Source of the DNA: Candidatus Auribacterota bacterium
Lineage (GTDB): Bacteria; Auribacterota; UBA6266
DNA: 37,858 nt
Assembly: GCA_016933315.1 (NCBI GenBank)
Contig: JAFGBE010000130.1
Span: forward strand, 1-37,858
Direction: 5' to 3'
The position numbers were made by a program, and so were the translations under genes. Under the pieces are notes generated by a model. The model was not told where the DNA came from, did not search any database, and saw only the letters and a list, made by a program, of their open reading frames with translations. Shown piece by piece: positions 3,547-36,122 of the stretch (its first letter is position 1; the number at the start of each line of letters is the position of its first letter).

Positions 3547-4101
3547 TTAAAAACTCTTTCTTGTGGCCAGCAGGCTGATAAATTCCATTCTTGTTTTGCT
3601 GTTTGACCGGAAGGCGCCGAGCATTGCGCTTGTAGTGCAATACGCATTCTGTTTTTCCACGCCTCTCATTGCCATGCAGAGGTGGAAGGCTTCTATTACT
3701 ACGGCTACTCCGAGAGGTTTTATTACATCCTGGAGAGTTTGCGCAATCTGCGTGGTCAGCCTTTCCTGGACCTGGAGCCTGCGGCTGTAAATTTCAACGA
3801 GCCTCGGTATTTTAGACAGCCCGATGACTTTTTTATCCGGCAGGTATGCGACATGGCATTTGCCGTAGAACGGCAGCAGGTGGTGTTCGCACATGCTGAA
3901 CATTTCTATATCCTTCAGAATGACCATTTCATCATATTTTTCCTCATACATGGCTTCTGAAAGGAGCTTATGAGGGTCTTCCCTGTACCCTTTTGTGAGA
4001 AATAAGAGGGATTCCTTTACCCTTGACGGAGTTTTTACCAACCCCTCTCTTCCGGGGTCTTCGCCGAGCTCTTTTAAAAGTTGTTCTATGATTTTTTCCA
4101 T
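3547..4101 (-). CDS. folE: GTP cyclohydrolase I
   Basis: 184 aa. Conserved FolE core [21 protein letters not shown] and [11 protein letters not shown]. Confidence 0.92.
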
Positions 4102-4184
4102 GGTATTTTTTAAAAATTCACAAAAAATAGTTTAATTTGGTAAAAGACATTATACAATAATCAGGTAAAATACATAAGTAAAAT

Positions 4185-5909
4185 ATGGACAAAGACAGGT
4201 TAGCGGAATTATTAGAAGATATCGGCACCCTTCTGGAGCTTAAGGGCGAAAACCCTTTTAAGGTCAGGGCTTATCATAATGCCGCAAGGGCGATAGGACA
4301 GTATCAGGGCCCGCTGGAGAAAGCCGTGAAAGAAGGCGCCCTTTCCGATATACCCGGCATAGGGAAAGGTTTATCTGAGAGAATAGAAGAATTTTCCGGC
4401 ACCGGCCATATAAAATACTATGACGAGCTTAAGAGCGCTATCCCGCCGGGAATGATAGAGATGCTTTCGATAGAGGGGCTTGGGCCCAGGAAAATCCGCG
4501 CGATTCACGAAAAACTCGGGATAGATACCGTGAGGGAGCTGGAAGAAGCCTGCAGGAAGAACAAAATAGCGTCTCTGGACGGATTCGGCAATAAAACGCA
4601 GGAGAACATCCTTAAGGGGATTCAGTATCTGAGCTCTAACCAGAATAAATTCCTGATATCCGACGCGCTGCGGGAAGCGCTCAGGATACTGGGACTTCTG
4701 AAGAAAAAGTGTAAGGGCAATATTAAGAGAATAGAAATAGCTGGAAGCCTGAGGAGGAAGAAAGAATTGATAGGAGATATAGATTTTGTTGCCAGCGCGC
4801 CCGACCCCAAAAAGGTTATGGATGTCTTCGCTTCTCTGGAAGGCGTTAAGGATGTTATAGCTAAAGGCAGCACGAAAACCAGCGTTAAGCTTGACGGGGG
4901 CATAAACGCCGACATAAGGATTGTGTCAGACAGGGAATTCCCGTATGCCCTTCATCATTTTACAGGAAGCAAGGAGCACAATACGGCGATGAGAGCCCTG
5001 GCTAAGACCAAAAGCATGAAAATGAATGAATACGGCCTGTTCAGGAAAGGCAGAAATGTCCCGTGCAGGAACGAGAAGGATATATTTGACGCCCTGGGCC
5101 TGTCTTTTATCCCGCCGGAACTCAGAGAAGACAGGGGTGAGATAGAGGCGGCTTCGAGAGGGGGAATACCCCGTCTTGTTGAGGAAAAAGATATAAAAGG
5201 AGTCCTTCATGTGCATACTTCCTATTCGGACGGGTCGGCTTCTCTTGAGAAGATGGTGGCCGAAACAAAAAAAAGAGGGTATTCCTATGTGGGAATATGC
5301 GATCACTCAGAAAGCGCTTACTATGCAGGCGGATTAGATGAGAGTAAACTCAGAAAACAGTGGGCGGAGATAGACGCGTTGAACGCAGAGGACAGGAGTT
5401 TCAGGATATTCAAAGGAATTGAGGTTGATATTTTTCCCGACGGGAAGATAGATTACGATGAGCGCGTGCTTGAGAAATTTGATTTTGTAATTGCTTCGAT
5501 TCATACAAAGTTTAAGATGACGAAGGAAGATATGACCGAGAGAATAATAAAAGCGGTTAAAAACCCTTATACGACCATGATCGGACATCTGACAGGACGG
5601 CTGCTGCTTACGAGAGAAGGTTATGAAGTCGATATCGAAAGGATAATAGAGGTATGCGCTTCGGAGGGGAAAACCATAGAGCTCAATTCTCATCCCCAGA
5701 GGCTTGACCTGGATTGGAGGTTCTGTAAGCTGGCAAAGGAGCGGGGTGTGCCCATATCAGTTAATCCGGATGCTCACAATGCTGAAGGCCTGGACGATAT
5801 AACTTATGGTATCGGGGCCGCAAGGAAGGGCTGGCTTGAGAAAAAAGATATCCTGAACACTCGGACCGCCGGCGAACTTAAAAAGTTTTTCGATAAGATT
5901 AAGAAATAA
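4185..5909 (+). CDS. polX: family X DNA polymerase with C-terminal PHP phosphoesterase domain (PolX)
   Basis: 574 aa. Has HhH motifs (IPGIGKGLSERI, IEGLGPRKIRAI), the pol-beta nucleotidyltransferase motif GSLRRKKELIGDIDFV, and the PHP start GVLHVHTSYSDG. Confidence 0.9.
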   Translation: MDKDRLAELLEDIGTLLELKGENPFKVRAYHNAARAIGQYQGPLEKAVKEGALSDIPGIGKGLSERIEEFSGTGHIKYYDELKSAIPPGMIEMLSIEGLGPRKIRAIHEKLGIDTVRELEEACRKNKIASLDGFGNKTQENILKGIQYLSSNQNKFLISDALREALRILGLLKKKCKGNIKRIEIAGSLRRKKELIGDIDFVASAPDPKKVMDVFASLEGVKDVIAKGSTKTSVKLDGGINADIRIVSDREFPYALHHFTGSKEHNTAMRALAKTKSMKMNEYGLFRKGRNVPCRNEKDIFDALGLSFIPPELREDRGEIEAASRGGIPRLVEEKDIKGVLHVHTSYSDGSASLEKMVAETKKRGYSYVGICDHSESAYYAGGLDESKLRKQWAEIDALNAEDRSFRIFKGIEVDIFPDGKIDYDERVLEKFDFVIASIHTKFKMTKEDMTERIIKAVKNPYTTMIGHLTGRLLLTREGYEVDIERIIEVCASEGKTIELNSHPQRLDLDWRFCKLAKERGVPISVNPDAHNAEGLDDITYGIGAARKGWLEKKDILNTRTAGELKKFFDKIKK

Positions 5910-5920
5910 CAGTTAAAACA

Positions 5921-6131
5921 GGACGCAGATAAGCGCAGATAGAAAAAGAGTATATTTAAACCACAGATAGTAAAATATAAAAATATATAAATACTAAAAA
6001 AATAATTGGAACCACGGATTTACACACTTGCCCGCCTTAGGCGGGGATAGTAAAAAGAACAAAGAGAGAGTAAAAATTATATAATAAAAATTTAAAAGTT
6101 TTATCTGTGATTATCTGAGATATCTGTGGTT
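5921..6131. repeat. Intergenic inverted-repeat element, family A (CAGATA-unit arrays), expanded copy
   Basis: The left part carries several GCAGATAA, GCAGATAG, CCACAGATAG and CCACGGATTT units. An AT-rich core contains a GC hairpin cccgcc-tta-ggcggg (6031-6045). The right arm is TTATCTGTGATTATCTGAGATATCTGTGGTT (6101-6131). Related copies lie at 17563-17675 and 30003-30074. Confidence 0.8.
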
Positions 6132-6179: not shown

Positions 6180-6821
6180 GTGAAACTGAAAGACAGAGCC
6201 AAAAAAACATACGATTTGCTTTTAAAGGAATATCCGGACGCTAAAACCGCGCTTAACTTCTCTACCCCGCTGCAATTGCTGGTTGCCACTATATTGTCCG
6301 CCCAGTGCACGGATGAGAGAGTTAATATCGTCACTCCCGGCCTGTTTAGGAAGTATGCGGGCCCGGACGCATTTGCAAATGCGGATCAGGCGGCGCTTGA
6401 ACAGGAAATCAGGAGCACTGGTTTTTTCAGGAATAAAGCGAAGAATATTATTGCCTGCTGCAGGGATATTGTTGAGAAGCACGGGGGAAGGGTCCCTTCT
6501 AATATGGAAGCGCTCATCCTGCTGCCCGGCATCGGCCGGAAGACGGCAAATGTGATACTCGGGAACGTTTTCGGTATTCCGGGCATAGTCGTGGACACCC
6601 ATGTCATAAGGTTATCCGGCAGGATCGGCCTCAGCAGGGAAACAGACCCCGTGAAAATCGAGTTTGACCTGATGAAGATTGTCGATAGAAAAAACTGGAC
6701 GATGTTTTCTCACCTGCTTGTTTTTCACGGCAGGAACATCTGCAGGGCGCGCAAGCCCGCCTGCTATAAATGCGGGATTGCGAAAATATGTTCTTATACC
6801 GGAAAAACCGCAAAACCCTAA
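6180..6821 (+). CDS. nth: endonuclease III (DNA-(apurinic/apyrimidinic site) lyase / glycosylase)
   Basis: 213 aa with a GTG start. HhH-GPD motif LPGIGRKTANVILGNVFG followed by VDTHV. C-terminal 4Fe-4S ligand pattern CRARKPACYKCGIAKIC (C-x6-C-x2-C-x5-C). Confidence 0.9.
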   Translation: MKLKDRAKKTYDLLLKEYPDAKTALNFSTPLQLLVATILSAQCTDERVNIVTPGLFRKYAGPDAFANADQAALEQEIRSTGFFRNKAKNIIACCRDIVEKHGGRVPSNMEALILLPGIGRKTANVILGNVFGIPGIVVDTHVIRLSGRIGLSRETDPVKIEFDLMKIVDRKNWTMFSHLLVFHGRNICRARKPACYKCGIAKICSYTGKTAKP

Positions 6822-6837
6822 CTTTCGGAGGAAAGCT

Positions 6838-8028
6838 TTGAAAAAGACTTTTGTGATTTTATCATACTGGGGGCCGCCTTCAAACAGCACGAAAAATATG
6901 AAAAAAGATTACGCGTTCGGTTATTTTACGCCTATCGACGCGGAGGACAGCCTTTCTTTAACGCTTGCCGGGATTGCCGATATTGAACCGGGAGCTTCGG
7001 TTATAGTCGTCGGGGTGTCGAACCACAAGTCTTATGATATAAAGGCCCAGAAAAAAGTGAGGGAGATAACCGATTCGCTTAAAGGCAAAATCGACATAAA
7101 GGTTTTCAGCTACAGGGAAATGACAAGGGTAAGGGACCTGTTGACCATAAACGGGCACGGGGAATTGACAAAGTATGTTGAGCCTGGCAATCCTTCGCAG
7201 GTGAAAAACCTCGGGCTTCTCGCGGCGGGAATCGCCGGCGCCGAAATGATAGTCCTTGTGGACGGGGGTAATATTATTGATTCAAAAAATTCGCTGGATG
7301 CCGCCGGGGAAAGGATCGAAAAGAGGCTTGAGGATGAAAGCATTATCTACGGGGTGCTGGGTTTTACCCGCAGGAAAAGCTCCGGCTGTTTTCCCGACCT
7401 GGAAGGATGTTCCTGGGATGAAGAAAGCGCCGTAAAGGCGCTGTATGAAGAGACGGGAGCCGGGATTATACCCGAAGGGGAAAAACTTGCTCTGGGCGGG
7501 TGTCTCCTCCTGCACAGGAAATTGTTTGAGAAGGTCCCTTTCGACCCGTTTATTGAAAGCAGGGAAGATATAGATTATATGATTTCGGCGAAAATGAACG
7601 GAGCGGGAATCGCGGTGTGCGGCGGTTTTCTGGCGGCGGAAACTGTGAAGTACGATGAATCCGCGGAGTACGACAGATTGAGAAAAGCAGCGGCTTCCTT
7701 TATACATATGAGGAAAAAGATAAGAACACAGAGGGAAAACACAGAAGGCTTTACAAGGGTCTATATTACGTCCCTTCAGCCGTATCCGGGAAGGTTTTTG
7801 GAAAGCGACCTTCTCCCCCGGATAAGGTCCTCGGCGGCATTTTTAAAGTCCGGGAAAATTTCTTCTCATGAAGAAGGCTTCGCCGGCAAAGTTGACGAAG
7901 TCCTCTCAAAAATCGAGGGCGATTACGCGGGAGAGGATGACCGGTTTAAAAAATATGATGATTTTGCCGGAGATTGGAGAAAACTTCTAAACAGGGTTTC
8001 TGATTTTAAGGATAAGGTGTTCGGCTGA
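6838..8028 (+). CDS. GT-A-fold glycosyltransferase-like protein, function unknown
   Basis: The long ORF opens at 6679 inside nth. I prefer the in-frame TTG at 6838 (GGAGG 6 nt upstream, just after the nth stop). The ATG at 6898 is an alternative. GT2-like layout: VIVVGVSN strand, NLGLLAAGIAGAEMIVLVDGGN (DGG where DxD is expected), GGCLLLHRKLFEKVPFDP...REDIDY. Confidence 0.4.
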   Translation: MKKTFVILSYWGPPSNSTKNMKKDYAFGYFTPIDAEDSLSLTLAGIADIEPGASVIVVGVSNHKSYDIKAQKKVREITDSLKGKIDIKVFSYREMTRVRDLLTINGHGELTKYVEPGNPSQVKNLGLLAAGIAGAEMIVLVDGGNIIDSKNSLDAAGERIEKRLEDESIIYGVLGFTRRKSSGCFPDLEGCSWDEESAVKALYEETGAGIIPEGEKLALGGCLLLHRKLFEKVPFDPFIESREDIDYMISAKMNGAGIAVCGGFLAAETVKYDESAEYDRLRKAAASFIHMRKKIRTQRENTEGFTRVYITSLQPYPGRFLESDLLPRIRSSAAFLKSGKISSHEEGFAGKVDEVLSKIEGDYAGEDDRFKKYDDFAGDWRKLLNRVSDFKDKVFG

Positions 8029-14504: not shown

Positions 14505-16019
14505 ATGGCTAACTTTGCGTTCTGTAATAAATGCCGCGAAACCGTTCCGGCCGAACATGTCGAAAGGGACGGCAAGATATTCCTCAGTAAAAATTGCCCG
14601 AAATGCGGTATTACGGAGACTCTCATCTCCAATAACGCTGAAGCGTATAAAAACAAGCGCGATTTTATGGGGGCTGTTGAATATGAAGGATGTAACCTTG
14701 ACTGCCTTAAATGCGAGCACAAGGAACCCGACATTGTTTTTATCGAATTGACCAACAGATGTAACATGAATTGCCCTATCTGTATTACCAATGTCCCTTC
14801 CATGGGTTTTGAATTTGAGCCGGATATGGAGTATTTCAGGCTTATATTCGAAGACCTTTCGAAGATGAAAAAGAAGCCGTCAGTCCAGCTTTTTGGCGGG
14901 GAACCCACGGTAAGAGAAGACCTTTTTGATATTATCAGGCTTGCGAAATCATACGGCCTTTCGGTCCGGGTTGTCACCAACGGCTTGAAGCTTGCTGACA
15001 AGAAATACTGCGATGATTTAATGGAAGAAGGTGTTTCCGTCCTTATATCGTTTGACGGGTTTGACAGGAAACTTTATGAGATTTTCAGGGGTATGCCGAA
15101 AGCCCTTGACCTGAAGCTCCAGGCTCTGGAAAACCTGAAAAACAGAAAAAAAGGCAAAGTTATTCTGATGACAGTTGCCTCGAAGGAGCAGGACATAGGG
15201 GAACTCAGGCGGCTTTTTGAATTCTGCCTGGAGAATAAGCATGTTGCCCGCGGGATGTTTATAATGCCGCTTGCCCATATGTGGTCTCCTGACCGGCTTG
15301 ATTATAACCCGGAGAGAACGACTCCGGAAGATGTGGAAGAGCTGGTGGATAAGGTTGTTGGCGGAGGTGTTGAATTTATTCCCCTCGGCTCGCTGGACAC
15401 CGGAGTCTTCAGCAAGATACTTAAACTGAAAGAGATGCCGTTTTTAGGTGTGCATCCGAACTGCGAGAGCATTACTCTTCTTGTGTCGGACGGGAAAAAG
15501 TTTTTGCCCTTGGGCAAATTTCTCAGGAAAGGCTTTGCCGGACTTATTGTTGATTTAAGAAGAACGGGCACTAAACTGTCTGTCGGGGAGAGAATCTCTT
15601 TTTTGACCCGTATTCGGGCATATCTCTCTGTTTTCAGGGTTGTCGTAACGAATTTCAACTTCGGGGCTGCCGTCGGTAAAAAAGGTATATCTGCGTTCCT
15701 GAAGTGGATGAAGATATTCTTTAAAGTTATTACCGGAGAGAAACTGAAGGATGTCATCCGCCGCGAAACAATTATGAAAGGGGCTTTGCAGATAATAGTG
15801 CTTCCTTTCGAAGATTACGATACTACCGAGGCCGTCCGGCTCAAAATGTGCGTTTCCTGTTTTGTTTATCCGGATTCAGGGAAAAATATAAAGAGAGTGC
15901 CTGTATGCGCCTGGGAACGGCATAAAAAAGTGATAATGAAAGAAGTCGCGGAAATATACAATAAGCCGGGTTTCAACAAAGGGTTAAAAAGGTCCGGAAA
16001 TGTGGCAGAAAAAGTTTAA
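14505..16019 (+). CDS. radical SAM protein, MJ0619/COG1964-type (Tes/GDGT-MAS-like), paralog 1
   Basis: 504 aa. N-terminal 4-Cys knuckle CNKC...(20 aa)...CPKC. An extra CX3CX2C (CNLDCLKC). The radical SAM CX3CX2C in IELTNRCNMNCPIC. GGEPTV SAM motif. C-terminal CVSC...C. Confidence 0.65.
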   Translation: MANFAFCNKCRETVPAEHVERDGKIFLSKNCPKCGITETLISNNAEAYKNKRDFMGAVEYEGCNLDCLKCEHKEPDIVFIELTNRCNMNCPICITNVPSMGFEFEPDMEYFRLIFEDLSKMKKKPSVQLFGGEPTVREDLFDIIRLAKSYGLSVRVVTNGLKLADKKYCDDLMEEGVSVLISFDGFDRKLYEIFRGMPKALDLKLQALENLKNRKKGKVILMTVASKEQDIGELRRLFEFCLENKHVARGMFIMPLAHMWSPDRLDYNPERTTPEDVEELVDKVVGGGVEFIPLGSLDTGVFSKILKLKEMPFLGVHPNCESITLLVSDGKKFLPLGKFLRKGFAGLIVDLRRTGTKLSVGERISFLTRIRAYLSVFRVVVTNFNFGAAVGKKGISAFLKWMKIFFKVITGEKLKDVIRRETIMKGALQIIVLPFEDYDTTEAVRLKMCVSCFVYPDSGKNIKRVPVCAWERHKKVIMKEVAEIYNKPGFNKGLKRSGNVAEKV

Positions 16020-17520
16020 AAGCATATGTCCCGTATGCGACAGGCCTCTTGAAGCTTTTTTTTATGAGGAAGCCGGCAAAATCTATATAAAGAAGGACTG
16101 CCCCGAGCACGGAAAAATCATAGACCTTGCTTCTTCGGATAAAGATATTTTCATAGGCAAGATGTCTCTCGCCCATGAAGACTATTCCCGGAACTGCAGC
16201 ATAGAAAGATGCAATGTCGGGATATTCGCCTGCAAGGATCACTTCGCCAGGAAAGCCCCTATTACCTTTATTGAAGTCACGCCGAGATGCAATATGCAGT
16301 GCCCTATCTGCTATATAGACGCCAGCACAAGAGGCAGCGATGTGCCGCTTGAAGACATAAAAAAAATGCTGGATGAAGTGCGGAAGAACGATCCCGATAC
16401 GCATCTTGTGCTTATAGGCGGGGAACCCACCATTCATAAAGATTTTTTCGGCATCCTCGATGCTGTCAGGCAGGCCGGGTTGATAAAAAGGTGTTACCTT
16501 GCCACTAACGGCATAACAATGTCCGATGAAAATTTTTGCAGGAAGGTCTACGACGCGGGACTGCGCTGGTTCTATCTTGCTTTTGACGGTGTGGACAAGG
16601 ATATATGCAAGCGTATAAGGGGCAGCTATCGTTCCTATGATGCGGCTAGAAAGACAATAGAAAACCTCAGGAAATTCAAGCGGGCGAGAATCGTGCTGTC
16701 TGTTACCGTAGTAAAAGGCCTTAACGAATCGCAGTTGCCGAAGGTTGTTGATTTCGCTCTTGAGAACACTGACGTTGTAAAACGCATTTCAATATCTGTA
16801 GAAATCTTTTGCGGCAGGCAGACGCTTATACCCGATGTCATAGACAAGAGGATTACACCGGAATGTATCGAGAAGATATTGACCGGCAGCCTCGGCCTGC
16901 AGTCAGCTACTATGGCGCTGGCCCTCGTTGGAGTTGCAATGAGGCCGCTGAAGATAGCCGGGCTTCTGCCGGAAAAGTTGTGGACCTACACCATGCCCCA
17001 TCCTATGTGCGGAAGCATAGGGCTAATAGGCAAAAAGGCGGATGGCCGGCGTTTCTCTATAATTGATTCGCTTGTCAGAAATCCCGGCAAAAATCTTTAC
17101 AGGCACGGCCTGAGGATTGAAAAACTGGCCCACAGGATGGAGAAAGCAAAAAGCAGGCTCTCAAAAAACATATTCGGCAGAATTCTGTGGAAGATGCTTG
17201 TCTTTTCTTTTTTTATTCCTGTCTATTTTATAATGCTGGCTGCTTTTATCAGGCCTTTGTTTATTCTCGATAGCATTAAATCTTTTTTCCTGTCGGTTAT
17301 CACAGGGAAGAAGATGAAGGACTGTTTATTAGGAAGAAAAAGAATGGAGATACATTACCTTGTATGCTCCGATAAATATAATTTTATCTGGGAAAAGATG
17401 CCTTATTGCGCGACACATCACTACAGGATAGACCCCAAAAGCAAAAAAGTCATAAAAATGTGCGGTTGTTATGTTTTGCCTTTCAGAAGCTACACCGAGT
17501 CCTGCAACACAATGGGATAG
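16000..17520 (+). CDS. radical SAM protein, MJ0619/COG1964-type (Tes/GDGT-MAS-like), paralog 2
   Basis: 506 aa, and the ATG overlaps paralog 1 by 20 nt. CPVC...KKDCPEHGK knuckle, IEVTPRCNMQCPIC, GGEPTI. It is clearly colinear with paralog 1 through the TIM-barrel region. Hydrophobic segment ILWKMLVFSFFIPVYFIMLAAFIRPLFIL. C-terminal C...CGC. Confidence 0.65.
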   Translation: MWQKKFKSICPVCDRPLEAFFYEEAGKIYIKKDCPEHGKIIDLASSDKDIFIGKMSLAHEDYSRNCSIERCNVGIFACKDHFARKAPITFIEVTPRCNMQCPICYIDASTRGSDVPLEDIKKMLDEVRKNDPDTHLVLIGGEPTIHKDFFGILDAVRQAGLIKRCYLATNGITMSDENFCRKVYDAGLRWFYLAFDGVDKDICKRIRGSYRSYDAARKTIENLRKFKRARIVLSVTVVKGLNESQLPKVVDFALENTDVVKRISISVEIFCGRQTLIPDVIDKRITPECIEKILTGSLGLQSATMALALVGVAMRPLKIAGLLPEKLWTYTMPHPMCGSIGLIGKKADGRRFSIIDSLVRNPGKNLYRHGLRIEKLAHRMEKAKSRLSKNIFGRILWKMLVFSFFIPVYFIMLAAFIRPLFILDSIKSFFLSVITGKKMKDCLLGRKRMEIHYLVCSDKYNFIWEKMPYCATHHYRIDPKSKKVIKMCGCYVLPFRSYTESCNTMG

Positions 17521-17562
17521 AAGTATATAGTTTTAAAAAATCAGAAAAACAAAGAAATTGTG

Positions 17563-17675
17563 ACCACAGATTACACAGATACACACAGATAAGAAAACTA
17601 AAAGCGCACAAATTCTGAAAGTTTTAGTTATATAAAATAGCATTTAATCTGTGATTATCTGAGTTATCTGTGGTT
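17563..17675. repeat. Intergenic inverted-repeat element, family A, compact copy
   Basis: Left arm ACCACAGATTACACAGATACACACAGATAA (17563-17592). AT-rich spacer of about 53 nt. Right arm AATCTGTGATTATCTGAGTTATCTGTGGTT (17646-17675) is an imperfect reverse complement of the left arm. Confidence 0.85.
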
Positions 17676-17713
17676 AATAAAAAATAACGTATGTGCTTTA
17701 TTAATCAAAGCCG

Positions 17714-18625
17714 ATGAATTTTTTAAAGAAAATAAAAAAAAATAAAACAGTTACTGATATCCGCAGGTATATTGTCTATATAGTTTCGATAACATCCTGT
17801 TTCATCGTGAGGATGCTCCCCTGGAAAATAGTTGTGAAAGCCGGAAAGGTTCTCGGGCTGTTCGCTTTCCATATTGTCCGCTACGCGAGAAAAAGGACAA
17901 TGGAGAACCTTGAAAAGGTCTTCGGGAAGGAAAAATCCGCCGGTGAGCTTCGCCTGATCGCGAAAAACGTGTATAAAAACATAGGGGTAACCTCCCTTGA
18001 ATTCCCCAAGATGCCTCATATGACGGATAGCGAGTTTTTTGCTGTTGCGGACTATAAAAAAGAGCAGATAGATTACCTGTGGGAACTTTTGAAGCATAAA
18101 AAAGGTGTGATTTTCGCCAGCGCCCATATGGGAAACTGGGAAATGCTCGCGGAATTCGGGGCGCGCCTCGGTTTTAATATGTCAATCCTGTTTAAACCTT
18201 CAACCAACCCTTATCTGAATAAGATATGGTTCAGCTTGAGAGGAAATAACAAGCTGATAGATATTTCAAAAGACCTGTCTTCTGTTGTCAGGAGGCTTCG
18301 CGCCAATGAAGTGATATGCCTGCTGTTTGACGAAAATGCGCGCAAGCGCGGGACTATGCTGGATTTTTTCGGCGCCCCGGCATCCACATACAGGGGCCCG
18401 GCGTATTTTGCGCTTAAAACCGGGTGCCCGGTAGTCTGCCTTTATTTTGTCAGGAGAAAGGAAGACGCGAGGCATAAATTTATTATCGAGCGGACTATCT
18501 GGCCGGAGAGGACCGGCGACCTGGAAAAGGATATGCTGGATATATTGAGGCAGATGAACGAAAGCCTGGAACAGGTTATCAGGCAGTATCCCGACCAGTG
18601 GAACTGGATTTATAAACGCTGGTAG
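17714..18625 (+). CDS. lysophospholipid acyltransferase family protein (LpxL/HtrB-type lipid A late acyltransferase family)
   Basis: 303 aa. N-terminal membrane anchor. Catalytic HX4E-type motif SAHMGNWEM. Downstream LLFDENA...FFG and a C-terminal YPDQWNW, all characteristic of the LpxL/LpxM/LpxP family. Confidence 0.75.
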   Translation: MNFLKKIKKNKTVTDIRRYIVYIVSITSCFIVRMLPWKIVVKAGKVLGLFAFHIVRYARKRTMENLEKVFGKEKSAGELRLIAKNVYKNIGVTSLEFPKMPHMTDSEFFAVADYKKEQIDYLWELLKHKKGVIFASAHMGNWEMLAEFGARLGFNMSILFKPSTNPYLNKIWFSLRGNNKLIDISKDLSSVVRRLRANEVICLLFDENARKRGTMLDFFGAPASTYRGPAYFALKTGCPVVCLYFVRRKEDARHKFIIERTIWPERTGDLEKDMLDILRQMNESLEQVIRQYPDQWNWIYKRW

Positions 18626-26710: not shown

Positions 26711-29700
26711 TTACTGTTCATTTTGGTTGGAAAACACAGACTTGTCCTGTGTTGGAAATTGCAACTTATCTAGAAGGGCTTTTCTTTTTTTATTCAGTGT
26801 TTTCCTTGGGAAATGCGCCTTTGCGAAGATTTCCACATCGTTCTTTGCGAGGTATGCCCATGTTGTTGCCGCCAGGCACAGGGCATCTTCCCTTACGACA
26901 TCATCTATAACGTCGGGGCCTCTGGTATCTATGACGTTATTCTTGGGCCAGGAATAAGGAACGCCTCTTGCGCCGTTCGGGAATTCATAGGAAGTGTCAT
27001 AAATCGCCTTTATAAGTTCAATTGATTTCTCATAATCCCCGAGAAGTTTGTAACAGTAAGCCATCTGGCCTGTCCCTTCAAGCCATATGGCGTCGCCGAA
27101 ATCATCATCAAAAGCGTTGTTCGGGAGGTCCCAGTATTCGTAAGCGGAAATTCGTTTGTTTCCGTCCGTGACAGTTATTCTCATAATCCGTTCCGCTTCT
27201 TTCATCATCTCCCTCGCCAGGGGCTCGTTCCCTTCTTCTATGAAGTAAATAGCGGCCCAGGACGCTATGGTATCGAGCGCCTTGACAAAATCAAGCTGTC
27301 CCCTTATGAACATTTTCCCTCTTTGCCACGAATCGGGGGAACCCCATGTTTTCGCGTCGCAAAGCCAGGGTTTTTCGTAATAAAGATCGTCCGCCTCGCC
27401 GTCGCCGTTGTCATCCCTGCCGGTATCGCTGTATCCCGGCGGTAAGCGGATGCCGTAATCGGCGTCCCCCCAGACTGAATGCTCGAGAAAGTTTTTTACT
27501 CCCAGATGTTTCAAATCTTTCGATCTCCAGAGGTATGCCGAGAGGTTCCCTTCCGCCTTGTCGTCCTTGTAAGATTTTACATTCTCGAGGGCCGTGATCG
27601 AATACGGTTTGTGTACGGTATAATATGGCTCGAGGCCTGTTGTGAAAAACCAGGTAAGGGCATTCTCAAGTATCTGTGAATGGGCCTTCATATTGGGGAT
27701 ATAAGTCGATATATAAGGGCTGTATTTTATCCCGTTTACTTCCTGTTGTGTCATTACATTGTAAAAGAAATCGAATATATCTCCCCTGAAGTAAATGGAT
27801 TTGCCGTCATTGTTCTTCCCGTGCTTTTTAAAATACAGGAAATCCCCCACGGGTTCGTATTTATAGGTGAGATAATCCCAGTTCTCTATGCCGTCAAGGT
27901 CTGCGGAAGCCTGCATGAGCGATATTTTCCCGTCTTCGTTTGCCCCGTAAAGTATGGGGATAATAGTGTAATGGTTGGTTGATACGGGATTGCCCGAGTT
28001 GTTTGTCCTTTCTTCCTTGGCGCTGATGTTGGGGGTATGCCCCGAGTTTAATTCGCTTATGGGCCCCCTGACTTCTCCCGTTCCCTGGTCATGCAGGTAA
28101 TAAACGAGCCTGCTTCGTTTATAATCCGGCGATGACCAGACAAGTATGTTTTCATAAGGGGGCGCGGCTTCAAAAGCGAAGGTTAACCTCCCGTCCAGCT
28201 CTTCCCAGTTATCCTCTTCCTCGGGTTCCTTCTGTGTTTCGGAGAGGTCGGGCATATAGTTCTCATTGACATCCATCATTCTCGAAGGGTTGTCTGTCCC
28301 GTCTTTATAGATTTTTGTTATGACTACATTCCTTCCGAAATTCTGTATCGGGCCAACTTCCTGGACGCCGAGGAACTTGACTCCGAAAAGGGAATTGTAA
28401 AGCGCCGAACGGCATGTTCCGAATATACACCCGCCGTTGTCCATAAAATCCTGCAGTTTTGTTACGCATTTTAATTTCGATACGGGCGTATTAGGAAGGA
28501 TAAGGACTTTTGTCCCCAGTATGGGAGGATTTACGTCTTTGGACTGTATGTTTATTATCGAATACGGAATTCCCATGAATTGAAGCATCCAGCGGGCTCC
28601 CTTGACCGCCTTATCGTCGTCGGGCAGGTCCACGACATTCAGTATTTTGATGTCCGAGGGGTTAAGGTTCAGGTTCCCGTAAGTCACTTCTTTGTAGGCT
28701 TTGTAGTGTTCGTTGTCTATAAAGCCTTCGCCTTTGAGTTTTTCTATCCAGTGCCAGCAGAACATCCAGTCTAGCGAATGCTCGGTCGCTTCGGGCGTTG
28801 TTTCAAGCGGCCCGTAATAGCCGAAATGTATTCCGCCGTTGAAATCCTGGAGGTTGTCGGTTATCGTGTCAAGTATCTTATATACTGTGGGAAGATAGGT
28901 TGTATCTCCTGTTTTATAGGTGTAGAAGAGTATTGAGAGGCAGAGCCACAGGTTGTCTCCGGAATAGGAGCCCCATTCACGGTAAACATATTCGTAATGC
29001 ATGAGGTGTTTTGAATATCCTACCAGCTGGTCGGGCCACAGCCTCGTTGTGCTTTTGGGTATGTCGGCGCCCTCGTCTATTTCCTTGTCAATATCGTAAA
29101 CATTGCAAAACATCCCGTATGGCCAGAATGCCCCGTAAAAAAATCCTTCTTCCGGGTGGGGCAGTGTCGCCGGATCTATCCCCAGTTCCTTGAGGTGCTC
29201 TAAATCGTCCGAGTCCTGATAATCGTTAAATTCGGTTACCCTCGGGAAATCGGTTTTGTCGTCTATTGCGGCTATATTGCCGTAAACCGTGTACCCGAAT
29301 TCATAACCCGGCGAGAGCAGGGGATAACCCGGATACCTGGCATCATCTTTATCCAGTTCCTTAGGGGTTTGCCCGTTGTCCTGGAACTTGTCGAAACTCA
29401 GGGCTATCATATTATGGGCTACGGGAGCAAGCCATTCCCCCTGGTCCCGCGGATGGCTTTCCTCGTATTGGTAGCCGTCAAACATTATAAACACCTTGCC
29501 CGCGTAGGTATTGATTATCTTCCTGGCATCTTCCGTCATACCCGCGTCCACCAGGCAGAACACTGTCATAGCCTGGTCATACATAAATGCCGAGTTACCC
29601 AGGCCGTCTTCAAATCCGTCGGCGGGGCCGGATGGTTTGTTGTCTGAGTCCGATATCACGTAAACAATCTCTTCGCGGCCCGTGTTTACTCTTACGGCGT

Positions 29701-29971
29701 CTATGGCGAACTGTTCTCCCCCCTTTCGGATTTTTGTGTAAGGCACGGGAGGGTTACATAGAGGGTCATAAAAGCTTCTGCAGAGAGCGGCGTCCACAAA
29801 TCCGCCGCGGCCGTTTTTTAACTTATGTTCCGTGAAAATATACGGGGTTTCCCTGCTCGCGAGGTATTTGATGAACTGGTCGTCTTTTTTATCCGCGGCG
29901 TATGCGTTGATCCGGGCGGCGCAAATGACGGCCAACAACGAAAATATTATTTTTATCGAAACCTTATTCAT
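26711..29971 (-). CDS. large secreted protein, (alpha/alpha)6-barrel glycoside-hydrolase-like with inserted domains; function unknown
   Basis: About 1086 aa from the ATG at 29971. Signal peptide MNKVSIKIIFSLLAVICAARINAYA. Helical-hairpin-like segments (AFMYDQAMTVFCLVDAG, GDNLWLCLSILFYTYKTGD, WLEGTGQMAYCYKLLGDYEKS, ALCLAATTWAYLA) are separated by a central module with KVLILPNTP...FMDNGGCIFGTC. That module may be class-I-glutamine-amidotransferase/ThuA-like, which is tentative. Confidence 0.6.
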   Translation of the reverse strand: MNKVSIKIIFSLLAVICAARINAYAADKKDDQFIKYLASRETPYIFTEHKLKNGRGGFVDAALCRSFYDPLCNPPVPYTKIRKGGEQFAIDAVRVNTGREEIVYVISDSDNKPSGPADGFEDGLGNSAFMYDQAMTVFCLVDAGMTEDARKIINTYAGKVFIMFDGYQYEESHPRDQGEWLAPVAHNMIALSFDKFQDNGQTPKELDKDDARYPGYPLLSPGYEFGYTVYGNIAAIDDKTDFPRVTEFNDYQDSDDLEHLKELGIDPATLPHPEEGFFYGAFWPYGMFCNVYDIDKEIDEGADIPKSTTRLWPDQLVGYSKHLMHYEYVYREWGSYSGDNLWLCLSILFYTYKTGDTTYLPTVYKILDTITDNLQDFNGGIHFGYYGPLETTPEATEHSLDWMFCWHWIEKLKGEGFIDNEHYKAYKEVTYGNLNLNPSDIKILNVVDLPDDDKAVKGARWMLQFMGIPYSIINIQSKDVNPPILGTKVLILPNTPVSKLKCVTKLQDFMDNGGCIFGTCRSALYNSLFGVKFLGVQEVGPIQNFGRNVVITKIYKDGTDNPSRMMDVNENYMPDLSETQKEPEEEDNWEELDGRLTFAFEAAPPYENILVWSSPDYKRSRLVYYLHDQGTGEVRGPISELNSGHTPNISAKEERTNNSGNPVSTNHYTIIPILYGANEDGKISLMQASADLDGIENWDYLTYKYEPVGDFLYFKKHGKNNDGKSIYFRGDIFDFFYNVMTQQEVNGIKYSPYISTYIPNMKAHSQILENALTWFFTTGLEPYYTVHKPYSITALENVKSYKDDKAEGNLSAYLWRSKDLKHLGVKNFLEHSVWGDADYGIRLPPGYSDTGRDDNGDGEADDLYYEKPWLCDAKTWGSPDSWQRGKMFIRGQLDFVKALDTIASWAAIYFIEEGNEPLAREMMKEAERIMRITVTDGNKRISAYEYWDLPNNAFDDDFGDAIWLEGTGQMAYCYKLLGDYEKSIELIKAIYDTSYEFPNGARGVPYSWPKNNVIDTRGPDVIDDVVREDALCLAATTWAYLAKNDVEIFAKAHFPRKTLNKKRKALLDKLQFPTQDKSVFSNQNEQ

Positions 29972-30002
29972 GGCCTCACAATTTAAAAACAAAAACTTCT
30001 TA

Positions 30003-30074
30003 AACCACAGAACACACAGATAGAAAAAACAAAATAAAAAATTAAAATAGTTTTATCTGTGATTATCTGTAGTT
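30003..30074. repeat. Intergenic inverted-repeat element, family A, short copy
   Basis: Left arm AACCACAGAACACACAGATAG (30003-30023). A-rich 29-nt spacer. Right arm TTATCTGTGATTATCTGTAGTT (30053-30074). The core TTATCTGTGATTATCTG is identical to copy 1. Confidence 0.8.
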
Positions 30075-32948: not shown

Positions 32949-33350
32949 ATGAGAGAGCTTGTTAAAGAACAGATTGTTGAAACTACCGCAGAAAAGGTTT
33001 CTTTCGGTGTTGAAACAATTTTGGATCTTTATGATTGTAATCTTCAGGTCATGAGATCCGAGGCTAAGCTGAGAGAATATGTCGACAAGTTGTGTAAGCT
33101 TTTGAACATGGAGAAGTATGGTGAATGTCTGACGCCCTATTTTGGCCTGAATAACGAGCACACAGCGGGATATTCACTTCTTCAGTTTATAGAAACCAGC
33201 TCGATTACGGGGCATTTTTCTGAGAATACCGGAACATCCTACATAAACATATTTTCCTGCGGCGCGTATGATCCGGAAAAAGCCGCGGAGTTTACAAGGA
33301 AGTTTTTCGGCGCAAAGAAGGTGATTAAGAGGATTATCGAAAGAAGATAG
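32949..33350 (+). CDS. AdoMetDC-fold pyruvoyl-type decarboxylase homolog (SpeH-like, divergent)
   Basis: 133 aa. Colinear with class 1 AdoMetDC: LDLYDC, YSLLQFIETSSITGHFSEN (compare VVVISESHLTIHTWPE), INIFSCG. Substrate (AdoMet vs Arg/Orn) is not assignable by eye. Confidence 0.65.
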   Translation: MRELVKEQIVETTAEKVSFGVETILDLYDCNLQVMRSEAKLREYVDKLCKLLNMEKYGECLTPYFGLNNEHTAGYSLLQFIETSSITGHFSENTGTSYINIFSCGAYDPEKAAEFTRKFFGAKKVIKRIIERR

Positions 33351-33357
33351 CTCTTAT

Positions 33358-33401
33358 CCCCCCGCGGACAGCATTCTGCAAGGCTGCGGGGGGATTTTTT
33401 T
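33358..33401 (+). terminator. rho-independent terminator
   Basis: CCCCCCGC-(20-nt loop)-GCGGGGGG followed by A-TTTTTTT, immediately after the 32949-33350 stop. Confidence 0.75.
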
Positions 33402-33492
33402 CGCCCTGTTAATGGGCGTCCTTTCACAATACATACCGCATTAATGCCATTTTAACAAAGGTGAACATTCGTTATTGGTTATCAATGTAGAG

Positions 33493-33575
33493 TTAGGTCT
33501 TTTAAGGTATTTTACAGTTTACCATTGACAAACTATGTTCAATAAGGTATTATTAGGTCTTAGTAAGGTGTTTAT
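33493..33575 (+). promoter_or_regulatory. sigma70-type promoter flanked by and overlapping a 22-nt direct repeat
   Basis: TTGACA (33525-33530)-N17-TATTAT (33548-33553). Direct repeats TTAGGTCTTTTAAGGTATTTTA (33493-33514) and TTAGGTCTTAGTAAGGTGTTTA (33553-33574). The second repeat begins at the last base of the -10 hexamer and covers the predicted transcription start. Confidence 0.5.
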
Positions 33576-33607
33576 TGTATTTTAATGTTAAGATGCAGGG
33601 AGTTGTT

Positions 33608-33925
33608 ATGGGTGAAGGCAGAGAAAAAGAGTTGATGACTGAAAAAGAGGTCAGGGAGCTTTTGAGGGTTTCCCGAACTACATTATGGAAGCTCAGGAAA
33701 AACGAAAAGTTCCCTTTTTCAAAGGTCGGAAGGCAGTACAGGTATTCCGGGAAAGAGATACTTGAATGGATGAAAGATAAAAAAGGTAAAAAAATTGAAA
33801 GGGGCGGCTCAGGCCACTCCGATAATATAGATAGGAAAGAAGAAAATAAACAACAGGAGATATCGAAAGAATCCTTGCAAGGTGGGGATAAATCTGTAAC
33901 CAAGGAAGTCGAAGGAAAAAAATGA
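33608..33925 (+). CDS. excisionase/MerR-superfamily HTH (HTH_17-like) DNA-binding protein with Lys/Glu-rich tail
   Basis: LMTEKEVRELLRVSRTTLWKLRKNEKFPFSKVGRQYRYSGKEILEWM is the helix-turn-helix_17 pattern. Start chosen at the ATG 33608 (AGGGAG 5 nt upstream). The stop overlaps the kamA ATG (ATGA). Confidence 0.65.
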   Translation: MGEGREKELMTEKEVRELLRVSRTTLWKLRKNEKFPFSKVGRQYRYSGKEILEWMKDKKGKKIERGGSGHSDNIDRKEENKQQEISKESLQGGDKSVTKEVEGKK

Positions 33926-35049
33926 AAAAAGATGGTGCGGCGAAATCTACATCGTCCGACGGTTCCAGTTCTTATAAGGTAAAGAAATCCAGGTGGTATG
34001 ATTGGAAATGGCAGCTTAAGAACAGAATTACAACGGTAGAAGAGATTTCGAAGTATGTAGCTTTAACTCAGGAGGAAAAACAGGGGCTTGATTTAAAAGA
34101 GAGGCTGGTTTTCGGGGTAACGCCTTATTTCCTGAGTCTTATAGATCCTTTCAGCCCGAACTGTCCTATAAGGAAGCAATGCGTTCCGACAGCCAGTGAG
34201 GGGGTTGCAACCGAATTTGATTATGAAGATCCGTGTGCGGAAGAAAAGGATTGCCCTGTCCCCGGGCTGGTTCACAGGTACCCGGACAGGGTATTGCTTC
34301 TTGCCACAGATGAATGCGCGTCCTATTGCAGGCATTGTACCCGCAAGAGGCTTGCGGGAAGCTCCAAGCATGTCCTTACCGCGAAAATGATGGACAAGAT
34401 AGTGAAATACCTGTCCGATAACCCGAAGATAAGGGATGTGGTAGTCTCCGGCGGGGATCCTTTGACTCTTGCTGAAGATAAGCTGGAGATGATTCTTTCA
34501 AGCCTGAAAAAGATAAGAAGCGTTCAGGTGATAAGGATAGGGACCAGGGTACCGATATTTCTTCCTATGAGGATTGATGAGGCGCTTGTTTCAATGTTGA
34601 AGAAATATCATCCTGTGTGGATGAGCATACACATAAATCACCCCCGCGAAGTGACCCCCGATGTTGAAAAAGCTTTGAATATGCTTGCGGATTCGGGGAT
34701 AGTGCTGGGCAGCCAGACGGTGCTCCTTAAAGGGATAAATGACAAGCCGGAAATTATGAAAGAGCTGTTCATCAGGGCTATGAAGAACAGGGTGAGACCT
34801 TATTATATTTATCAGTGTGACCCCGCAAGAGGAACTGCACACTTCCGAACCTCAGTCAAGACAGGTGTTGAAATAATTGAAAATCTGCGCGGTTTTATCA
34901 GCGGTTACGCGGTCCCTACGTATGTTATCGATGCCCCGGGCGGCGGAGGCAAAATACCTGTCTCTCCCAATTATGTGGTTGAGCATAAAGGTAAAAAGTG
35001 GACACTTAAAAATTATCGCAACAACAGATATGAATATATAGAGCCTTAA
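33922..35049 (+). CDS. kamA: lysine 2,3-aminomutase family radical SAM/PLP enzyme (short, EpmB-length form)
   Basis: 375 aa. Colinear with Clostridium KamA: WKWQLKNRI, TPYFLSLID, PGLVHRYPDRVLLLATDECASYCRHCTRKR (CX3CX2C), RPYYIYQCD, VIDAPGGGGKIPV (PLP Lys). It lacks the C-terminal Zn/oligomerisation extension of clostridial KamA. Confidence 0.85.
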   Translation: MKKDGAAKSTSSDGSSSYKVKKSRWYDWKWQLKNRITTVEEISKYVALTQEEKQGLDLKERLVFGVTPYFLSLIDPFSPNCPIRKQCVPTASEGVATEFDYEDPCAEEKDCPVPGLVHRYPDRVLLLATDECASYCRHCTRKRLAGSSKHVLTAKMMDKIVKYLSDNPKIRDVVVSGGDPLTLAEDKLEMILSSLKKIRSVQVIRIGTRVPIFLPMRIDEALVSMLKKYHPVWMSIHINHPREVTPDVEKALNMLADSGIVLGSQTVLLKGINDKPEIMKELFIRAMKNRVRPYYIYQCDPARGTAHFRTSVKTGVEIIENLRGFISGYAVPTYVIDAPGGGGKIPVSPNYVVEHKGKKWTLKNYRNNRYEYIEP

Positions 35050-35099
35050 CCATTCCGGTCTGGCGGGAAAACAGAAAATAAAAAGATGTGTGTACTGGT

Positions 35100-36122
35100 A
35101 TGAAAATAGGAATTACATATAACCTGAAAACGGATTTTAAGGGTCTCGCGCTGGCGGCGGAAGACGCGCTGGAGGAATTTGACAGCGAGAAGACTGTAGA
35201 CGCGATAGCTTCCGCCATTGTGAAAATAGGGCATGAGGCGGTCAAGCTCGGCGGCGGCGAGCAGGTTATCGGCAAGATAAAAAACGAGGAACCTTCGCTG
35301 GTTTTTAATATCGCGGAAGGTGTCAACGGAAGGGCGCGTGAAGCGCAGATCCCGGCCTTGCTTGAGTTGCTTAAAATACCGTATACACATTCCGATCCCC
35401 TTACTCTCGCGCTGACGCTTGATAAATCCATGACCAAGCATGTTGTCAAATCATGCGGTGTGAACACGCCTGATTTTCTGGTCGTTTCGGATACCGCGGA
35501 GCTTAAGGGAGACAATCTTCCCGGATTTCCCCTGATAGTCAAGCCCGCGTGGGAAGGTTCAAGCAAGGGGATAAGAACAAATTCAAAGGTGAACAATTTT
35601 GATGAGTTGGAAACTCAGGTCGGATGGGTGTTTAAAAATTATCCGGGCCAGCCTGTTTTGATAGAGCAGTTTATAAGGGGGCGGGAGATTACCGTGGGCG
35701 TTATCGGGAACAATCCTCCGCGCATCCTTGGGATGATGGAAATAGGTTTTAAGGAAAACACCAAAAAAGATTTTATTTATTCCCTGGAAGTGAAGAGGGA
35801 TTACGAGAAACTTGTAAAATATACGTGCCCCCCGGGGCTTGATGACAAAGTGGCCGCGAAAGTTGAAAAGATGGCTCTGTCCGCTTACGACTGCCTTCAT
35901 TGTAAAGACATTGCCAGGATGGATTTCAGGATTGATGAGAAAGCGAACGCTTATTTTATTGAAATCAACCCGCTTCCCGGCCTTTCTCCCGACTACAGCG
36001 ACCTGATTATAATGTCGAAAAAGCTCGGGATAGAATACGAGGATATAATCAGGGGGATAATCGAAAACGCCGTTAAGAGATATAATATAGGAGAAAAAAT
36101 TGAGAGCTGCACTTCTGTTTAA
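35100..36122 (+). CDS. ATP-grasp ligase, D-Ala-D-Ala-ligase-like but non-canonical (paralog 1)
   Basis: Start set at the ATG 35100 (MKIGITYNLK). ATP-grasp motifs LIVKPAWEGSSKGI, ARMDFRIDEKANAYFIEINPLPGL. It lacks the Ddl N-terminal GGxSxEHEVS signature. Confidence 0.75.
   Translation: MKIGITYNLKTDFKGLALAAEDALEEFDSEKTVDAIASAIVKIGHEAVKLGGGEQVIGKIKNEEPSLVFNIAEGVNGRAREAQIPALLELLKIPYTHSDPLTLALTLDKSMTKHVVKSCGVNTPDFLVVSDTAELKGDNLPGFPLIVKPAWEGSSKGIRTNSKVNNFDELETQVGWVFKNYPGQPVLIEQFIRGREITVGVIGNNPPRILGMMEIGFKENTKKDFIYSLEVKRDYEKLVKYTCPPGLDDKVAAKVEKMALSAYDCLHCKDIARMDFRIDEKANAYFIEINPLPGLSPDYSDLIIMSKKLGIEYEDIIRGIIENAVKRYNIGEKIESCTSV

Follow-up and report, generated by a model that had tools for sequence, protein, structure and literature searches.

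An overlapping pair of Tes-like radical SAM paralogs in Auribacterota and Omnitrophota: a candidate two-paralog system for coupling membrane-lipid tails

Glycerol dialkyl glycerol tetraethers of the branched type (brGDGTs), together with membrane-spanning lipids related to them, serve around the world in reconstructions of past temperature and pH. Few of the producers of such lipids in anoxic settings and few of the enzymes that make them are known, and bacterial homologs of the archaeal tetraether lipid synthase Tes are standing candidates (PMC8941075; PMC11868695; PMC13274423). The archaeal enzyme GDGT-MAS (MJ0619) contains four metal sites: a rubredoxin-type iron bound by C9, C12, C33 and H36; an N-terminal auxiliary cluster, [4Fe-4S]N, bound by C73, C77, C80 and a histidine; the radical S-adenosylmethionine (SAM) cluster; and a C-terminal auxiliary cluster, [4Fe-4S]C, with the labile ligand Met439 and with a sulfide to which the first activated lipid carbon becomes bound (Lloyd et al., PMC9433317). 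Here we describe two overlapping genes, P1 and P2, that encode Tes-like radical SAM proteins in a 37,858-nucleotide contig of a Candidatus Auribacterota bacterium (JAFGBE010000130.1, assembly GCA_016933315.1), which was analysed over its whole length and is referred to below as the window.

The proposal that bacterial Tes homologs make brGDGTs or other membrane-spanning lipids dates from 2022 and covered 456 homologs found at a cutoff of 1e-50, including Acidobacteria proteins (Koribacter, Solibacter) that are 40-42% identical to MA_1486; the best of the published homologs reach E 1e-139 to 1e-149 against archaeal Tes (Zeng et al., PMC8941075). These homologs have been described as not experimentally confirmed (PMC11868695; PMC13459092). 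Experiment has confirmed just one bacterial synthase of membrane-spanning lipids, Mss; this radical SAM protein is of another family and is described as no more than a remote relative of Tes (PMC13159169; PMC13274423). Mss of Thermotoga maritima (Tmari_0825) and Thermoanaerobacter ethanolicus (WP_129545148.1) joins two fatty-acyl tails, a counterpart of the reaction we propose for P1 and P2, and an auxiliary-cluster mechanism has been proposed for it. Unlike the P1–P2 pair, it is a single gene product, active in E. coli; this distinction follows its published description. Neither of the two surveys of bacterial Tes homologs (PMC8941075; PMC11868695) mentions tandem heteropairs or Tes homologs of Auribacterota or Omnitrophota, and we found no mention of either in the wider literature. 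The idea is thus known at the level of the family, and the deeply diverged, coupled heteropair and its narrow P2 clade appear to be undescribed.

The start codon of P2 lies inside the 3' end of P1, the TAA stop of which occupies positions 16017-16019, and a ribosome-binding site (GGAGAG) is found about 8 nt upstream of the P1 ATG (Table 1). A preliminary description, made from the letters of the window alone, had noticed two genes of about 505 codons that share 20 nt and encode colinear paralogs. The open reading frame (ORF) coordinates agree with this, and in BLASTP the two proteins align colinearly (445 residues, 26% identity, E 9e-41).

P1 and P2 belong to the MJ0619/GDGT-MAS/Tes-type radical SAM family, as had been suspected; Pfam, NCBIfam, a search of Protein Data Bank (PDB) sequences and a fold search all agree on this. 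Both proteins carry the Zn ribbon PF23545 (Zn_ribbon_HMPTM; P1 E 1.7e-11, 43.9 bits; P2 E 2.9e-13, 49.6 bits; cutoff 27) and the radical SAM domain PF04055 (E 2.9e-18 in P1 and 4.6e-24 in P2). Among 18,950 NCBIfam models, the best for both is the tetraether lipid synthase Tes, followed by TrsS. The resemblance stops short of the equivalog level: on the Tes model NF045702, P1 reaches 188.1 bits and P2 194.6 bits against a cutoff of 450, with P1, P2 and their clade relatives at 177-195 bits and archaeal Tes controls at 489-725 bits. The anticipated similarity to Tes therefore stood for the family, with Tes as best profile, and fell for the equivalog, membership of which is ruled out by these scores. 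Membership of TrsS (NF045646) was rejected as well, the scores being 156.8 and 167.9 bits against a cutoff of 490 and the match covering profile positions ~3-296 of 441.

The sole strong match among PDB sequences is GDGT-MAS (7TOL/7TOM; E 1.4e-48 for P1 and 1.2e-45 for P2), and the remaining radical SAM enzymes score 1e-7 or weaker. AlphaFold2 (AF2) models of both proteins were of high confidence (P1, pLDDT 92.5 and pTM 0.91; P2, pLDDT 91.5 and pTM 0.90). Foldseek superposed them on 7TOL over nearly their full chains, with query- and target-normalized TM-scores (TMq/TMt) of 0.77/0.79 over 502 columns for P1 and 0.71/0.73 over 525 columns for P2 (E ~3e-32 for each). It is from this superposition that the C-terminal domain, which the sequence alignments by themselves had left uncovered, can be assigned to the GDGT-MAS type. 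Other radical SAM structures match the models in the radical SAM core only (TMq ~0.3). Maturases of cofactors or of ribosomally synthesized and post-translationally modified peptides were rejected as an assignment, given that SPASM-type maturases, MoaA and the like fit this core alone.

To locate the metal ligands, the 7TOL sequence was rebuilt from its alignment and aligned with 231 family members. All the cysteine clusters picked out by the preliminary description were recovered in this alignment: the N-terminal metal knuckle, which falls in PF23545 and in the columns of the GDGT-MAS rubredoxin ligands; a second cluster ahead of the core, which aligns with [4Fe-4S]N; the CX3CX2C and GGEP motifs of the radical SAM core; and C-terminal cysteines in invariant columns (C320, C449 and C468 in P1; C337, C470 and C490 in P2). 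The rubredoxin-type site of P2 has the ligand pattern of MJ0619, and its histidine is replaced by cysteine throughout the P1 supergroup. The P1 motif CX3CX2CXH (C63/C67/C70/H72) is invariant in the P1 clade and predicted to ligate [4Fe-4S]N. In P2, the spacing is CX4CX6CX2H instead of the CX3CX2CX2H of Tes, and it is invariant in 29/29 P2-clade sequences examined. This invariant alternative cysteine rules out the idea, raised by an apparent loss of C77, that P2 is a degenerate pseudo-enzyme. Judged by their motifs, both paralogs look catalytically complete.

Cysteine fills the columns of MJ0619 C338, C455 and C470 without exception, in the P1 and P2 clades as in archaeal Tes. Their conservation suggests that these cysteines ligate [4Fe-4S]C, for which the published text names only Met439 (PMC9433317). 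Met439 itself is invariant in archaeal Tes; leucine stands in its place in the two bacterial clades, with a few exceptions among P1-clade sequences and a single one among those of the P2 clade. This replacement is not an argument against catalysis by P1 and P2, because the M439A variant of GDGT-MAS retains activity and still forms C–C bonds (PMC9433317). A separate peculiarity concerns the residue after C320 of P1 (residues 317-322, HPNCES; window 15453-15470), which is an invariant glutamate across the P1 supergroup and a glycine in P2 and archaeal Tes. Taken with the change from Met439 to leucine, this glutamate might be an alternative fourth cluster ligand or a catalytic base.

The pair is conserved beyond the window, as the preliminary description had asked of related genomes. 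P1 and P2 occur together with a tight junction in 16 loci of an Auribacterota and an Omnitrophota type (about a dozen of them distinct), with varied flanks. Six of the seven Auribacterota-type junctions measured, including that of the window, are overlaps of 20-23 nt when taken from the conserved ATGTGG start, and the seventh (L009) is a 1-nt gap. Among the Omnitrophota loci, four have overlaps of 8-11 nt and one (L083) a 13-nt gap. Across 45 locus pairs the identities of P1 and P2 co-vary (r = 0.86). The pair is a co-inherited unit in Auribacterota and Omnitrophota. The genome scan on which this distribution partly rests used P2 at species level and returned three Auribacterota/UBP3 genomes and scattered distant family members; such a single-protein scan finds close relatives only, and the Omnitrophota loci came from look-ups of exact proteins.

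Other clusters of the P1 supergroup hold two P1-type copies that are 60% identical (L032), three copies (L031), four copies (L081) or a single one (L080), and the copies in L031 and L081 fall into recurring subtypes. Multi-paralog, translationally coupled sets thus seem typical of the bacterial branch, as far as gene layout can tell. Some of these relatives stand beside genes of sulfur mobilization, in the regions L031 3043-11014, L032 7518-12116 and L081 1-11509: a NifS-like Aminotran_5 gene in L031 and L032, and in L081 JAB, a PP-loop ATPase, PALP and a fusion of NIR_SIR with TusA. These genes could serve either the Fe-S cofactor demand alone or the delivery of sulfur into a product.

The two paralogs differ in one further conserved feature. 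The strongly hydrophobic segment that had been pointed out in P2 corresponds to residues 395-420, ILWKMLVFSFFIPVYFIMLAAFIRPL, with a Kyte–Doolittle maximum of 2.48 over 19 residues. It forms a helix in the AF2 model and is kept across the P2 clade, in which the helix reaches 2.5-2.7 and the medians of the 19-residue maximum are 1.64-1.77, compared with ~1.1-1.3 for archaeal Tes and for the P1 clade, neither of which has the helix.

Clustering of the family gave four groups, namely the P1 supergroup, the P2 clade, archaeal Tes and a TrsS-like group of ~470 residues. The P1 supergroup comprises the Auribacterota and Omnitrophota orthologs and a 42%-identical sister group (Planctomycetota, one Acidobacteriota metagenome-assembled genome (MAG) included). 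Identity between groups is ~21-26%, and ~27-33% between archaeal Tes and the TrsS-like group. In neighbour-joining trees, the P1 supergroup and the P2 clade are separated from archaeal Tes and the TrsS-like group in 97.5% of bootstrap replicates, with long-branch attraction as a caveat; the change from Met439 to leucine, common to both clades, fits this grouping. P1 and P2 are therefore a separate, deep bacterial branch of the Tes/GDGT-MAS family. P2 is rare: we found ~33 orthologs at 90% clustering, and only ~8 of 1.84 billion 50%-identity representatives score >= 260 bits, the next matches being near 160 bits. A large TrsS-like subgroup (group 5, P0176-P0240, ~470-477 residues; for example P0181 from Bacillus sp.) retains the Zn ribbon, N-terminal cluster and radical SAM core and has mostly Ser, Thr/Ser and Asp in the C338, C455 and C470 columns, respectively. 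With these residues, group 5 probably has no C-terminal cluster of the Tes type and serves some other function.

Compared with archaeal Tes/GDGT-MAS (MJ0619, 7TOL/7TOM; MA_1486, Maeo_0574), P1 and P2 have the same length of ~500 residues and the same four domains: the rubredoxin-type Zn ribbon, the N-terminal auxiliary cluster, the radical SAM core and, at the C-terminus, an auxiliary-cluster/lipid-pocket domain. They keep the metal-ligand Cys/His sites and the full-length fold (TM 0.71-0.79). In contrast to Tes, both have leucine in place of Met439, P1 has a Cys4 rubredoxin site, and P2 has an altered N-cluster spacing and an additional hydrophobic helix. They are encoded as a conserved, overlapping heteropair, whereas GDGT-MAS was purified as a monomer and acts alone, and their hosts are diderm bacteria with presumably ester-linked fatty-acyl lipids. 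The first three of the four domains are shared with TrsS, but TrsS-like proteins (~470 residues) have neither the C338/C455/C470 cysteines nor the Tes-type C-terminal domain. Like the Koribacter and Solibacter homologs, P1 and P2 are bacterial members of the superfamily and candidate membrane-spanning-lipid enzymes, yet they are much farther from archaeal Tes (E 1e-30 to 1e-44 at an nr-sized search space). Because these values are weaker than 1e-50, the P1 and P2 clades were probably not counted in the 2022 survey (PMC8941075), a comparison we infer here from queries other than the published ones; they would also lie near the threshold of a 2025 survey of Black Sea MAGs (PMC11868695).

The gene that follows the pair had been read as an acyltransferase of the LPLAT type, and this is borne out by a PF03279 match (LpxL/HtrB family) of 162 bits against a cutoff of 22.3. 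The protein has a hydrophobic N-terminal segment and the motif HMGNWE (HX4E) at residues 138-143. It falls under every NCBIfam equivalog cutoff (best NF006270, 125 bits against 248), and since it has no equivalog-level match to LpxL, LpxM or LpxP, the family match does not fix its acceptor lipid. In eight loci the next gene after the pair is the acyltransferase, and three of these loci (L033, L034 and L036) have unrelated flanks; this supports an operon-level link within Auribacterota. In L033 the trio adjoins lpxD-skp-bamA and accBC. The expected conservation of a lipid-gene neighbour thus holds for the Auribacterota-type loci and fails for the Omnitrophota loci, in which the pair stands without the acyltransferase; the acyltransferase also occurs without the pair. 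One such pairless ortholog (L035) lies downstream of a 507-residue ORF (4153-5676) that Pfam assigns to the AsmA/YhdP family, which functions in outer-membrane lipid homeostasis, and another (L040) downstream of a 507-residue ORF (4091-5614) that, the ORFs being laid out in the same way, is presumably of the AsmA family too. Since some of its orthologs stand apart from the pair, no fewer than two of them by an AsmA-family gene, the acyltransferase appears to be an envelope or lipid A enzyme of the ordinary kind.

A PMT/PMT_2 gene for an ArnT-like GT-C glycosyltransferase is found upstream of the pair in three of the four Omnitrophota contexts with upstream DNA, L083 being the exception. This glycosyltransferase may stand in for the Auribacterota acyltransferase as a functional partner. 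Omnitrophota loci also repeatedly encode a ~500-residue protein with two Thy1 (ThyX) stretches after the pair (L003 9503-11008; L005 10140-11654; L083 7523-9037). This tandem ThyX-like protein is probably a fused tandem thymidylate synthase held in place by synteny; it has no evident link to the pair and was not counted as part of the system.

We propose that P1 and P2 form a two-paralog bacterial Tes-type system that couples the alkyl-chain termini of membrane lipids by radical chemistry, a reading to which we give somewhat less than an even chance. Both proteins would be made from one message through their overlapping, translationally coupled frames. Each would hold a rubredoxin-type site, an N-terminal [4Fe-4S] cluster, the SAM-cleaving [4Fe-4S] cluster and a C-terminal [4Fe-4S] cluster bound by three cysteines. 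Because the pair is inherited as a unit, we envisage two arrangements: a P1/P2 heteromer in which P2, through its extra helix, would sit in or on the membrane, or a division of labour in which P1 and P2 would carry out two couplings that follow one another or differ in regiochemistry. Lipids linked tail to tail would result, in membrane-spanning or macrocyclic form. Envelope lipids are suggested as the general field by the neighbouring genes, for an LpxL-type acyltransferase in the one phylum (Auribacterota) and for an ArnT-like glycosyltransferase in the other (Omnitrophota), although these do not pinpoint the substrate. GDGT-MAS is non-specific in its binding of head groups and binds bacterial phosphatidic acid, which favours the proposal. 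What the data establish is the family, the fold, the cofactor ligands as judged by alignment, the conservation of the pair and the P2 helix; a lipid substrate, C–C coupling, a heteromer and the type of product are proposals. To name diabolic-acid or brGDGT-type lipids as the product is pure inference, and it appears doubtful that P1 and P2 are an obligate two-subunit synthase of diabolic-acid or brGDGT-precursor membrane-spanning lipids in the two phyla.

Several observations weigh against a Tes-like lipid coupling by this pair. Residues near the GDGT-MAS active site are changed, with Y459 replaced by Phe in P1 and His in P2, Q268 by Met in P1 and Ser in P2, and R275 lost in P1. P1 and P2 are only ~24-33% identical to archaeal Tes and score far under the equivalog cutoff, so their chemistry could differ from that of Tes. 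GDGT-MAS was purified as a monomer and forms both C–C bonds alone (PMC9433317), which leaves a heteromer with no precedent in the family. The neighbours of the pair differ between Auribacterota and Omnitrophota, and a metagenome scan found four orthologs of the acyltransferase, in the 53-61% identity class, with no pair upstream. Confirmed tail coupling in bacteria is the work of Mss and not of Tes homologs (PMC13159169). As the preliminary description had supposed, published work to 2025-2026 contains no experimentally tested bacterial member of the Tes family, and our literature searches met with no lipid data for Auribacterota or Omnitrophota.

If the substrate is taken to be an outer-membrane lipid, such as lipid A or a related glycolipid, the pair could cross-link or cyclize acyl chains supplied by its LpxL-type neighbour. 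The best-known members of both the PF03279 and the PMT/PMT_2 families act on lipid A, the trio of L033 stands beside lpxD-skp-bamA, and the pairless copies next to AsmA-family genes mark the acyltransferase as an outer-membrane lipid enzyme. Both neighbour families, however, also include enzymes for other acceptors; the acyltransferase and the PMT/PMT_2 gene never occur together and neither is universal; and their link to the pair could reflect the clustering of envelope genes alone. The pockets of GDGT-MAS take glycerolipids, and we know of no lipid A with tail-to-tail linked chains. We consider this explanation unlikely. A different radical reaction on lipid tails, for instance formation of a C–S bond (thioether) with a sulfide of the C-terminal cluster or a single intramolecular modification, seems quite unlikely. 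GDGT-MAS does proceed via a bond between substrate carbon and cluster sulfide (PMC9433317), its protective Met439 ligand is leucine in both clades with nearby residues altered, and sulfur-mobilization genes adjoin the P1-supergroup relatives described above. But such genes flank the pair in none of the window, Auribacterota or Omnitrophota loci examined, the heavy need of a 13-iron enzyme for Fe-S clusters accounts just as well for a NifS-like neighbour, and C–C bond formation survives in GDGT-MAS M439A.

A substrate other than a membrane lipid, such as a cofactor, a peptide or the substrate of the TrsS family, is in our view very unlikely. TrsS does rank second among the curated families (157 and 168 bits), P1 and P2 have low identity to Tes, and MJ0619 itself was formerly assigned a role as a pterin methylase (PMC9433317). 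Yet the TrsS match covers the N-terminal ~60% only, and TrsS-like proteins are without the C338/C455/C470 cysteines; the modelled fold, including its predicted C-terminal lipid-pocket domain, matches GDGT-MAS throughout; the pterin assignment has been refuted structurally; and no precursor-peptide or cofactor genes are conserved beside the pair in the loci examined. Equally improbable is a pair in which one paralog alone is catalytic and the other a scaffold or membrane anchor, or in which independent duplicates merely stay adjacent. Such an asymmetry would echo Methanosarcina acetivorans, where of the two Tes homologs one, MA_1114, yielded no more than trace amounts of product (PMC8941075), and P2 does have its distinct helix and altered N-cluster spacing. 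The CX3CX2C and GGEP motifs and the auxiliary ligands are nevertheless invariant in both paralogs despite ~25% mutual identity and a long divergence, which indicates purifying selection on catalysis in both, and the tight junctions and co-divergence speak against independence.

Anoxic sediments, lakes and groundwater widely harbour Auribacterota and Omnitrophota, which are not known to have been considered as sources of such lipids. The locus offers a compact test case, with two overlapping paralogs that have full sets of cofactor sites and an acyltransferase that is conserved in one phylum. If the proposed coupling of membrane-lipid tails is correct, Tes chemistry works on bacterial lipids, in a heteromeric or two-step form of an enzyme that acts alone in archaea, and the two phyla join the possible sources of lipid biomarkers. 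Should the pair be an obligate two-subunit synthase of the kind called doubtful above, bacteria would have, beside Mss and the archaeal-like Tes homologs, a third and independent enzymatic route to membrane-spanning lipids, and the two phyla would be unrecognized anaerobic producers of palaeoclimate-proxy lipids. If the product differs, the pair would bring to light a new reaction in a family whose carbon-to-cluster-sulfide intermediate is itself unusual.

Table 1. Features of the P1–P2 locus and distribution of the pair (positions in the window unless another locus is given)
Feature	Position or loci	Strand	Basis or remark
P1, 504 aa, GDGT-MAS/Tes-like radical SAM, P1 clade	14505..16019	+	ORF, PF23545 and PF04055
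P2, 506 aa, GDGT-MAS/Tes-like radical SAM, narrow P2 clade	16000..17520	+	ORF, PF23545 and PF04055
P1/P2 overlap, 20 nt, predicted translational-coupling junction	16000..16019	+	ORF coordinates
P1 rubredoxin-type Cys4 site (C7, C10, C31, C34)	14523..14606	+	aligned with MJ0619 C9/C12/C33/H36
P1 N-terminal auxiliary [4Fe-4S] motif CNLDCLKCEH (C63, C67, C70, H72)	14691..14720	+	aligned with MJ0619 C73/C77/C80/H83
P1 radical SAM CX3CX2C (C86, C90, C93)	14760..14783	+	alignment; GGEP at 14895-14906
P1 C-terminal auxiliary-cluster region: C320 (HPNCES), L433 at Met439 column, C449, C468	15453..15914	+	alignment
P2 rubredoxin-type Cys3His site (C10, C13, C34, H37)	16027..16110	+	ligand pattern as in MJ0619
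P2 N-terminal auxiliary motif CX4CX6CX2H (C66, C71, C78, H81)	16195..16242	+	alignment
P2 radical SAM CX3CX2C (C97, C101, C104)	16288..16311	+	alignment; GGEP at 16417-16428
P2 C-terminal auxiliary-cluster region: C337, L454 at Met439 column, C470, C490	16999..17475	+	alignment
P2-specific hydrophobic helix, residues 395-420	17182..17259	+	Kyte–Doolittle; within AF2 helix 391-416
Acyltransferase, LpxL/HtrB family PF03279, 303 aa	17714..18625	+	PF03279 E 2e-47
Imperfect inverted repeat, 28 nt, in P2–acyltransferase spacer	17563..17674 (arms 17563-17590, 17647-17674)	.	sequence
Pair loci, Auribacterota/UBP3, syntenic	window, L001 (complete 1.99-Mb relative), L002, L007-L009
Pair loci, more divergent	L033, L034, L036		only the P1–P2–acyltransferase trio in common with the window
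Pair loci, Omnitrophota type	L003/L004, L005/L006, L079, L082, L083		seven loci, five contexts
PMT/PMT_2 membrane glycosyltransferase, 533-538 aa	L003 4769-6370; L005 4700-6316; L082 2767-4383		directly upstream of pair

The acyltransferase begins 193 bp downstream of P2, and in the spacer ACACAGATA / TATCTGTG motifs in tandem make up an inverted repeat. This pair of motifs recurs at ~5962-6130 and 30015-30062, both intergenic in the window, and the repeat therefore looks like a genome-specific, repetitive extragenic palindromic (REP)-like element. The same inverted repeat occupies the spacer in L001, and in L007, L008 and L034 the spacer holds inverted repeats with other sequences; the element is an uncertain member of the system. 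An Rfam scan of the window, the spacer repeat included, found no RNA family, and promoter and terminator motifs at the locus were not more numerous than in shuffled sequence. Three antisense ORFs within P1 and P2 (14486-15001, 15302-15757 and 15973-16437, all on the minus strand) were rejected as genes, as their tblastn matches in relatives mirror the conservation of the coding strand.

The remainder of the window is of housekeeping character, encoding PFOR subunits, DsbD, GTP cyclohydrolase I, PolX, endonuclease III and transporters, as well as an OmpA-LysM protein, a Ser/Thr kinase, a sigma-54 activator, an epimerase and others. Two of its ORFs, at 26711-29992 (minus strand, 1093 residues) and 6679-8028 (plus strand, 449 residues), have no Pfam match at E <= 0.001. 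A block at 32949-37188 encodes a SAM decarboxylase-like protein, a lysine-2,3-aminomutase-like radical SAM protein and, in two consecutive genes, ATP-grasp proteins of the D-Ala-D-Ala-ligase type. This combination of decarboxylase, aminomutase and ATP-grasp genes is also present in L009, directly after the acyltransferase, and may represent a small pathway for an amino-acid or polyamine derivative.

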